A stretch of DNA of 10,286 nt from a virus (IMGVR_UViG_2740892231_000002:1-10286); one strand, 5' to 3'. Positions 7,123 to 7,729 are shown, numbered from the stretch's first letter. Notes: generated by a model from the letters alone, not told the origin. Program-made: numbers and translations.

Positions 7123-7649
7123 GCACTATCACAAGAGAATGGCTGCAGCAGGCTATCAACGATTATGAAAGCGTTCGTGATGAGCTTCCTTTCGGGCTTG
7201 ATGATTACCAGGGGAATATCCTGGCTTCCCTGCGTATCGCACTGGCATCTCTGGAAGCAGAGCCGGTGGCGTGGAAGGTAACATTCACGCAAATTGACCG
7301 TGAATATAACACGTTCACTGGTATGTATTCTGACAAAGCAGAAGTCGAACGGTGGGTGCGGCTGCATAAAGCATGTAATTTTCGGGCAGATATAACACCG
7401 CTTTATACCGCCAAGCCAGTGCCGGTAACTCCGGATGGTTGGATAAGCTGTAGTGAGCGAATGCCGGATACCAAAACAGCCGTTCTTGTTGCCAGGGAGT
7501 TTGACAGGAAAGGTGACTGGCGAATGAAATGGGCGACTTACATCCCGGGGCATCCTGACGCTAATGATGGGTGGGTAGTACCTGGTGCGTCGTGGATACC
7601 ATCACACTGGATGCCGCTACCAGAACCGCCGCAGGAGGTGCGCCAATGA
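7119..7649 (+). CDS. DUF551 domain phage protein, 176 aa
   Basis: ATG at 7119 overlaps the upstream stop (ATGA). The C-terminal WISCSERMPD...WMPLPEPP segment is typical of DUF551. Confidence 0.75.
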   Translation: MSTITREWLQQAINDYESVRDELPFGLDDYQGNILASLRIALASLEAEPVAWKVTFTQIDREYNTFTGMYSDKAEVERWVRLHKACNFRADITPLYTAKPVPVTPDGWISCSERMPDTKTAVLVAREFDRKGDWRMKWATYIPGHPDANDGWVVPGASWIPSHWMPLPEPPQEVRQ

Positions 7650-7729
7650 GCTGGCCTGAGGCCTTCTCAAATGTTGGTATTGCAATGGCGGTGGCGCTGG
7701 TGGTGTATTCGATTTGCCGCTGGGGATAA
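7646..7729 (+). CDS. Candidate 27-aa hydrophobic micro-protein (MSWPEAFSNVGIAMAVALVVYSICRWG)
   Basis: ATG at 7646 overlaps the DUF551 stop (ATGA) and has AGGAGG 7 nt upstream. The translation has one predicted hydrophobic helix and stops at TAA 7727-7729, just before the terminator. It is below the ORF-track length cutoff. Confidence 0.4.
   Translation: MSWPEAFSNVGIAMAVALVVYSICRWG

Follow-up and report, generated by a model that had tools for sequence, protein, structure and literature searches.

The question raised by the 10,286-nucleotide viral stretch IMGVR_UViG_2740892231_000002:1-10286 (in its full length, the window) is whether a very small open reading frame (ORF) at the end of a cluster of phage accessory genes encodes a protein and, if so, what that protein might do. 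This micro-ORF lies on the plus strand at 7646-7729, begins with ATG and runs for 27 codons to a TAA stop at 7727-7729; its predicted product is MSWPEAFSNVGIAMAVALVVYSICRWG. An earlier note, made from the sequence alone, had drawn attention to it as an unannotated hydrophobic micro-ORF coupled to a gene for a DUF551 domain protein. Here, we show that frame, start and length are strongly conserved in related prophages and that purifying selection at the protein level is seen in this frame only, so that the note was right to treat it as a real gene. In our judgement it is very likely that the micro-ORF is a protein-coding gene under purifying selection. As to its function, we propose, tentatively, that the product would sit in the inner membrane and modulate a larger host protein there.

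Conservation and coding capacity of the micro-ORF

Two samples of homologous loci carry the case for a gene. The second of them is the less dependent on the micro-ORF itself, as its only anchor was the upstream DUF551 gene end of the PQEVNQ type and the micro-ORF played no part in the selection. A member of the family followed 118 of the 120 gene ends sampled, and 116 of the members were intact. Among the 26 unique alleles, the pooled ratio of nonsynonymous to synonymous change (pN/pS) was 0.29 in the micro-ORF frame versus 1.38 and 1.81 in the off-frames, and synonymous changes made up 47% of substitution types compared with an expected 25% (p = 2.8e-4; 18% in each of the other two frames). 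The same is seen between individual alleles, with a pS of 0.75 and a pN of 0.14 separating the window allele from that of phage Av-05.

The first sample, gathered with a back-translated C-terminal pattern from 120 IMG/VR contigs together with the window and other fetched loci, is biased to conserved C-termini. It contained 59 distinct DNA alleles and 38 peptide variants, and 124 of 133 copies were intact at exactly 27 codons, with TAA or TGA as the stop at the same position. Across 33 unique peptides of this sample M1, W3, R25 and W26 are invariant, and G11 (32/33), A6, Y21, S22 and C24 nearly so. The non-intact alleles comprised four 1-nt deletions, one in-frame 6-nt deletion allele (two copies), three stop-loss extensions and a nonsense allele in Shigella phage POCJ13, in which codon 3 is changed from TGG to TAG (fetched locus 1501-1584). 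A 1-nt deletion in codon 2 is found in phage vB_EcoS-689R5 (fetched locus 1501-1611) and four IMG/VR copies, and the vB_EcoS-689R5 record annotates the frameshifted micro-ORF as an ORF of 36 codons. These inactivated copies could be sequencing errors or real decay.

When homologous loci are aligned, similarity begins at the Shine-Dalgarno sequence and ATG and stops at the stop codon. On the upstream side at least five unrelated gene ends are found: the DUF551 end ..PEPPQEVNQ, ..ISVEDILR, ..NIEQEVNR (L0139 of phage 933W), ..GGHEEGDK and the eaa end ..RLEVR. Despite these differing upstream genes, a Shine-Dalgarno-like motif is present at -20 to -4 in 128/132 copies, and the upstream stop lies within an ATGA or GTGA overlap in 117/132; in IncY plasmids the overlap behind the eaa gene is TAATG. 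About 15 junction classes occur directly past the stop, including hok/sok (53/122), the terminator and parDE unit present in the window (16/122), other terminators and a small gene before xis-int. The 3' half of the micro-ORF is highly conserved also at the nucleotide level.

The signals for translation in the window are those that the earlier note had described. The Shine-Dalgarno sequence AGGAGG is present exactly, at 7633-7638 on the plus strand, embedded in the upstream codons for Q-E-V, and a 7-nt spacer (7639-7645) separates it from the ATG. The start overlaps the upstream stop as ATGA at 7646-7649, in which TGA (7647-7649) ends the DUF551 gene; this would be the site of translational coupling. 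The junction around AGGAGG and ATG reads CCGCAGGAGGTGCGCCAATGAGCTGG; from shuffled sequence 0.01 occurrences of the composite AGGAGG-N7-ATGA would be expected, and the window has one. Serial 4-nt overlaps (GTGA at 6445, ATGA at 7119 and ATGA at 7646) tie the last four cistrons together in the same manner, each with its own Shine-Dalgarno sequence. An in-frame GTG at 7571, which would give a product of 52 amino acids, was rejected as the start because the sequence 5' of the ATG is unrelated in homologues that lie behind other genes.

Consensus scans revealed no promoter-like site upstream of the micro-ORF on the plus strand (weak evidence) and none on the minus strand within or beside it. For the micro-ORF region there is no Rfam match at E <= 1, and its RNA fold is no more stable than shuffles (z -1.5). 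Two antisense frames are open across 81 nt in most alleles; since both flanks vary they have no conserved start or stop, and an antisense gene opposite the micro-ORF was rejected for this reason.

Distribution and genomic settings

A blastn search with the 84 nt found 3085 places in 1621 of 5426 complete Escherichia coli genomes (about 30%), nearly all of which span the whole ORF; a single genome carries up to seven copies, and 161 of the 3085 places are on plasmids. E. coli O157:H7 Sakai has four copies, one of them at 2194413-2194496 on the minus strand, and the Shiga toxin (Stx) phage 933W also carries the gene. Homologues occur as well in Stx and other lambdoid phages, in Vequintavirinae phages and in P1-like IncY phage-plasmids, whose hosts are E. 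coli, E. albertii, E. fergusonii, Salmonella and one Klebsiella. Divergent homologues detected by tblastn include those of phages YYZ-2008 (MNWPEAFTAVGVAIAVAFILYSLFRWG), Stx2a_WGPS2 (MTWPDAFAIVGVAMSIALIVFAICRWG) and Av-05 (MTWPEAFTTVGVVMAVAFAVYSVCRWG), the PhiR12 type (MSWPDAIVTLGMVFAVAFVVYSICRWG) and the IncY plasmids (MSWPEAFTTVGIVMAAALGLYSICRWW). A scan of one genome per species with a strict C-terminal pattern, which for that strictness says little about distant homologues, returned E. coli and Shigella and, beyond these, a 1.8-kb contig of a Segatella copri metagenome-assembled genome and a 431-bp Xanthomonas pisi contig, both of which are possible cases of contamination or host misassignment. 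A record named Actinobacillus phage vB_Apl-pPE4 (PP818812.1, 13106-13190) holds an E. coli-type micro-ORF of 88% nucleotide identity, for which host misassignment or contamination is likewise possible.

The micro-ORF invariably closes an Ead/Ea22-EaA-DUF551 accessory cluster, standing directly behind an Ead/Ea22-, EaA/eaa- or DUF551-type gene in the same orientation; what comes next, with no further ORF between, is usually a terminator or an inserted toxin-antitoxin cassette. The same cluster order is found in 933W, ArgO145, YYZ-2008, WGPS2, PhiR49_2, Av-05 and the IncY plasmids, and the location of the cluster differs among phages. In the prophage studied here the micro-ORF comes after the replication genes and before the antiterminator gene, with RusA, Q and stx all downstream of it. 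In YYZ-2008, WGPS2 and PhiR49_2 it lies in the exo-xis region, between Ea22-like/DUF551 genes and xis-int, and in 933W, VT2-Sakai and their relatives at the right end of the prophage beside hokW. In Av-05 and TH18, both classified in the Vequintavirinae, Ea-type modules again make up the gene in front of it as a mosaic. The hokW promoter and mRNA start of 933W are situated just downstream of the micro-ORF stop, which places the micro-ORF outside the hok locus. In hok-type loci a weak antisense match downstream of the micro-ORF, LGLFSICRW, had suggested an inverted repeat with its 3' end; sequence and repeat searches found none, and the match lies in the hokW leader/sokW region. The 20-nt RNA 24B_1 of phage 24B was considered and found unrelated, lying between lom and vb_24B_43 in the late region.

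Coupling to DUF551, as the earlier note had it, describes the commonest arrangement and holds to that extent; the same ORF also stands behind at least four other gene ends. Conversely, DUF551 genes may lead into other sequences. K-12 prophage CPS-53 has yfdS (DUF551) followed by yfdT (an Ea22-like N-terminal fragment), with no family member there. In Klebsiella phage RCIP0061 (fetched locus 904-965) an 18-codon hydrophobic ORF, MDYLLLCVGVVIWVKCLC, begins 5 nt past the DUF551 stop, and in the P22-like phage ST104 (fetched locus 898-1185) the 94-amino-acid orf7, with an N-terminal hydrophobic segment, overlaps the DUF551 stop; both are unrelated in sequence to the micro-ORF. No hydrophobic ORF follows the DUF551 gene of Jerseyvirus STP03 or Acinetobacter phage QH4. 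A DUF551 gene plus a membrane peptide may be a recurrent arrangement, or chance.

Features of the peptide

The predicted layout of the peptide is an acidic N-terminal tail (residues 1-5), a hydrophobic span (6-24) and the C-terminus R25-W26-G27. The single transmembrane helix predicted in the earlier note is borne out on the Kyte-Doolittle scale, where the best 19-residue mean (residues 6-24) is 1.96 and exceeds the customary membrane-span threshold of 1.6; all seven variants scored fall between 1.96 and 2.75.

Family searches placed the peptide in no described group. The best Pfam match reached 14.4 bits (cut-offs 27-28) and the best NCBIfam match, to KdpF (TIGR02115), 8.5-14.7 bits (cut-off 26.85). 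PHROGs contained no family match, with only phrog_4612 reached at E 0.019 by one variant; PADLOC and PDB gave no match to the peptide, and Hok, Ldr, Ibs and other curated toxin families no sequence match. The peptide string was not found in the literature. The peptide is not mentioned in the exo-xis literature consulted (PMC8614690, PMC10834534) and is absent from the text-form supplement of the Pro-SMP finder.

Proposed role

We propose that the micro-gene is transcribed as part of an early operon: in this prophage it would be the right-hand operon, from the replication genes to the antiterminator gene, and in other phages the exo-xis segment of the leftward operon. Since a promoter-like site is lacking upstream and the flanks are variable, expression should follow the early operon. 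Translation would proceed by coupling to the upstream gene, so that the peptide would appear early in infection or once a prophage is induced, and not while the lysogen is quiescent. The product may then enter the inner membrane with residues about 6-24 as its one helix. Under the positive-inside rule, with E5 in the N-tail and R25 near the C-terminus, the predicted orientation is N-out/C-in. The acidic N-tail would face outward and R25 the cytoplasm, with W3 and W26 at the two membrane interfaces; the 23 residues from W3 to W26 are about one bilayer thickness. In the last and weakest step the helix would associate with a larger host inner-membrane protein, one conserved among the Enterobacteriaceae, and alter its activity in early phage development, much as bacterial small membrane-protein regulators do.

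Such a specific helix-helix interaction with a conserved inner-membrane protein is, we suggest with some reserve, the most likely mode of action. Fixed length, invariant interface residues, the lack of antitoxin-type regulation and the tolerance of up to seven copies all favour it, and the mechanism remains a reasoned guess. The presence of the gene in the virulent group Vequintavirinae suggests that its role is not limited to prophage maintenance. It is tempting to go further. The FtsH/HflKC protease sets the stability of CII, and the peptide might conceivably control a host inner-membrane machine that feeds the lysis-lysogeny decision, with FtsH/HflKC, a transporter or a sensor as candidates, although we regard this as a long shot. 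If it were true, a gene missing from current annotation would underlie part of the lysogeny and induction phenotypes of Stx phages and thereby influence their toxin output.

Several observations weigh against a specific membrane-protein modulator. The span is rich in Ala and Val and only moderately hydrophobic, with a Hessa sum of about -2.6 to +2 kcal/mol. Conservation has no helical-face periodicity (moment 0.057, not above shuffles, in the C-terminus-biased sample) and thus gives no positive indication of a specific packing face. None of the nearby genes is a candidate for a partner; they encode soluble Ea22/DUF551 proteins or belong to unrelated cassettes. Peptides of such size and composition are often toxic when overexpressed. 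Finally, the peptide does not appear in the text-form supplements of two ribosome-profiling studies of enterohaemorrhagic E. coli (Hücker 2017, Neuhaus 2016); a search of these for the peptide string and for the coordinates of Sakai Sp11 found neither, a weak negative in which growth conditions are not considered.

Toxicity leads to the explanation that survives best beside the modulator, a membrane-damaging toxin whose oligomers in the inner membrane would dissipate the proton motive force, in the manner of DinQ, ShoB, IbsC and TisB or of a Kil-like host-shutoff factor, such that the host is slowed or killed early after induction. The size of the peptide, its single hydrophobic helix and its very short tails do fit the general description of type I membrane toxins (review PMC12648545), it is translated from a strong Shine-Dalgarno sequence, and it often adjoins addiction modules (hok/sok in 53/122 copies and parDE in 16/122). 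These adjacent cassettes are self-contained, though, and begin right past the micro-ORF stop; the micro-gene itself has no promoter of its own, conserved structured leader or conserved antisense flank, up to seven copies per genome are tolerated, and no curated toxin family, Hok, Ldr and Ibs included, matches it in sequence. We therefore regard a toxin as unlikely. Because the regulatory features of type I toxin-antitoxin systems are absent, we infer that a modulator of a membrane protein is more likely than unspecific membrane damage or a type I toxin.

A role tied to the gene next door appears improbable. The peptide could be a membrane anchor or subunit for the upstream Ea22/DUF551-type protein, with translational coupling setting the stoichiometry, as might be suspected from its presence after 98% of the sampled PQEVNQ-type DUF551 gene ends, from the nearly universal 4-nt overlap and from the unrelated hydrophobic ORFs that DUF551 genes of the Klebsiella phage and ST104 also precede. 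A dedicated partner is difficult to reconcile with the occurrence of the same peptide behind at least four C-terminal modules without DUF551 (..ISVEDILR, ..NIEQEVNR, ..GGHEEGDK and eaa ..RLEVR). Moreover, DUF551 is found in 554 phage records and the peptide in only about 90-96, and the DUF551 genes of the Jerseyvirus and the Acinetobacter phage lack a following hydrophobic ORF.

The act of translation, rather than its product, could also be what matters, if ribosomes were kept on the mRNA as far as the terminator, preventing Rho-dependent polarity or tuning termination at the hairpin. The micro-ORF is the last cistron, its stop is near enough for a terminating ribosome to touch the hairpin base, and terminators closely follow the stop in several junction classes. 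We consider this very unlikely, as it leaves unexplained the purifying selection on amino acids, the invariant W3, R25 and W26, the near-invariant G11 and the fixed 27 codons, and as the downstream contexts are heterogeneous (the hok promoter, another gene, various terminators).

The Chi octamer GCTGGTGG lies within the micro-ORF at 7696-7703 on the plus strand, in codons A17-V20, and with those at 2213-2220 (+), 9461-9468 (-) and 9513-9520 (-) brings the count in the window to four, against 0.38 expected from shuffles. It occurs in 75/115 copies of the unbiased sample, at either the ALVV codons or the CRWW C-terminus of the P1-type allele, and in none of the divergent alleles; it is probably a by-product of common Ala-Leu-Val-Val codons. 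That the 84 bp are a recombination linker or hotspot between exchangeable phage modules, with a fortuitous ORF around Chi, can be all but dismissed: the frequent Chi at its two alternative positions, the mosaic junctions on both sides and the nucleotide-level conservation of the 3' half speak for it, but the junctions match the start region and a stop codon that itself varies between TAA and TGA, divergent alleles without Chi retain the ORF, its length and its key residues, substitutions have a synonymous bias in this frame only, and the element is found in both transcription orientations relative to the phage map (nin-like and exo-xis positions), so that Chi cannot be consistently active-oriented in both.

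Neighbouring genes and annotation

The gene upstream of the micro-ORF (7119-7649, plus strand) encodes a 176-amino-acid variant of the Ea22 family with a C-terminal DUF551 domain (Pfam PF04448, E 2.1e-20, residues 107-172). It starts in the ATGA overlap at 7119-7122, the Shine-Dalgarno sequence of the micro-ORF falls within its last codons (..PEPPQEVRQ*), and an identical DUF551 stretch is WP_000104478.1 in RefSeq. It is preceded, also on the plus strand, by an intact Ead/Ea22-like ORF of 225 codons at 6445-7122 (PF13935, E 3e-33), which begins in the GTGA overlap and ends in an ATGA overlap, and this in turn by an Ead_Ea22 gene at 5858-6448. In NZ_CP027586.1 the Prokaryotic Genome Annotation Pipeline (PGAP) calls the counterpart of the 6445-7122 ORF a partial pseudogene (7346-7723 of the fetched locus only).

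The earlier note placed the end of the micro-ORF just before a terminator, and the hairpin indeed starts 11 nt past the stop. This intrinsic terminator (7735-7781, both strands) consists of an A-run, the hairpin at 7741-7773 and then TTTGATTT, and is common to the converging transcripts. It is built on an inverted repeat (7740-7754/7759-7773), and the 61-nt segment 7725-7785 folds at -17.9 kcal/mol (z -4.4, with 0/200 shuffles as stable); a simple terminator scan missed the hairpin because its T-run is interrupted. Both the Ea22-cluster segment of the early operon and, on the opposite strand, the parDE unit end at this terminator; the latter is a ParE/ParD type II toxin-antitoxin pair (7852-8151 and 8157-8414, minus strand) that converges on the micro-ORF. 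The slot directly after the micro-ORF stop is occupied by parDE here and by a hok/sok cassette in other phages, and addiction modules seem to insert there by preference.

Positions 7100-7800 are 100% identical to the Stx2b prophage of E. coli 2012EL-2448 (NZ_CP027586.1), in which the micro-ORF is unannotated. That prophage matches the window at 99.85% from 3725 to 10286, with the left part rearranged, and the full window was without a match as a whole in the complete-genome collection. As for the micro-ORF being unannotated, the note's description stands for the RefSeq/PGAP records inspected, as neither the nearest RefSeq record nor the others have a feature over it. It fails for GenBank, where the identical 27-amino-acid peptide is deposited as a stand-alone 'hypothetical protein' (BAI35516.1, EIL20813.1 and others); the commonest peptide variant is found in 79 contigs of the protein collection. 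Contig-edge fragments in the micro-ORF frame (GAPMSWPEAF...CRWG) are named 'DUF551 domain-containing protein, partial' (EKC0363722.1, EEQ7452446.1), a PGAP label that is an annotation artefact. A peptide-DUF551 fusion, suggested by DUF551 proteins of 121 and 185 amino acids in the peptide's 90%-identity clusters, was rejected, as their sequences lack the peptide; these representatives are a clustering artefact.

Elsewhere in the window, the replication-gene region has a 250-bp tandem duplication at 3475-3964 (2.0 copies, 94% matches). Two arrays of 21-bp repeats (2855-2903 and 2974-3022, about 120 bp apart; consensus unit TGTCACGATCAGTCACGACA) are possibly origin iterons.

Significance

What is new here is an unstudied and uncurated family of phage micro-proteins, to be placed among the small single-helix membrane proteins known from phages. 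The gene, present in about 30% of complete E. coli genomes, is omitted from the inspected RefSeq records and belongs to no curated family. The balance of lysogeny and lytic growth in Stx phages is reported to be shifted by genes of the Ea22/exo-xis region (PMC10834534), and deletions or polar mutations in that region could unknowingly affect the micro-gene. With strong coupling signals and clear invariant residues it also makes a clean test case for small proteins, in which a change of ATG to ATA leaves the upstream protein unchanged. Small conserved hydrophobic ORFs are common in phages, and without a phenotype the micro-gene is a moderately interesting candidate, not a surprise.

Comparison with known systems

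Among type I toxins, DinQ, ShoB and TisB are about 26-29 amino acids long, IbsC 19 and Hok/Gef about 50. The micro-protein resembles them in its very small size, in consisting of little more than a hydrophobic helix with a few residues on either side, in its association with mobile elements and in its likely inner-membrane location, and its 27 amino acids and Kyte-Doolittle mean of 1.96 place it within the class of small (<60 amino acids) one-helix hydrophobic peptides. It differs in regulation, having no antisense RNA, promoter of its own or leader that sequesters the Shine-Dalgarno sequence, and in being coupled within a polycistronic early operon. Where a type I toxin has its own promoter and a long structured 5' leader, the micro-ORF has an exposed AGGAGG behind unrelated upstream sequences; where a type I system has a conserved antisense or adjacent small-RNA antitoxin, it has some 15 unrelated downstream classes. 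The general features of type I membrane toxins and of small membrane-protein regulators are those reviewed in PMC12648545.

Holins and antiholins of lysis cassettes are late genes downstream of a Q-dependent promoter, and the micro-gene lies upstream of Q or in the exo-xis/b region. Superinfection-exclusion or immunity membrane proteins are made in the repressed prophage from a promoter of their own; for the micro-gene no promoter-like site was seen in a consensus scan that is itself weak evidence, and it occurs also in phages classified in a virulent subfamily.

With the small proteins of the lambda and Stx-phage exo-xis region (Orf60a, Orf61, Orf63, Ea8.5 and Ea22; PMC10834534, PMC8614690) the micro-protein shares a neighbourhood and, presumably, early expression, and its position in YYZ-2008, Stx2a_WGPS2 and PhiR49_2 is the region where lambda has ea8.5. 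Those proteins are soluble, with DNA-binding or zinc-finger-like folds, whereas the micro-protein is a predicted membrane helix; in the exo-xis modelling review both the peptide and the word 'transmembrane' are absent.

As regards topology, the analogy is with the coat protein of phage Pf3. The N-tail of this protein is short and acidic, its one hydrophobic helix is followed by a basic residue on the C-terminal side, and it takes up an N-out/C-in orientation without a signal peptide. The layout of tail, helix and basic residue is alike, which may serve as a topology analogy only, as the micro-protein is not a virion protein and has no sequence similarity to Pf3 coat.

Bacterial small membrane-protein regulators include MgrB, MgtS, AcrZ, KdpF, CydX and PmrR. 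Among curated models only that of KdpF matched even faintly, far below the cut-off. The micro-gene is phage-borne rather than chromosomal and has no partner gene in its neighbourhood. Like them, its product is under 50 amino acids with one predicted transmembrane helix, and it may, by the same analogy, act by binding to a larger membrane protein.

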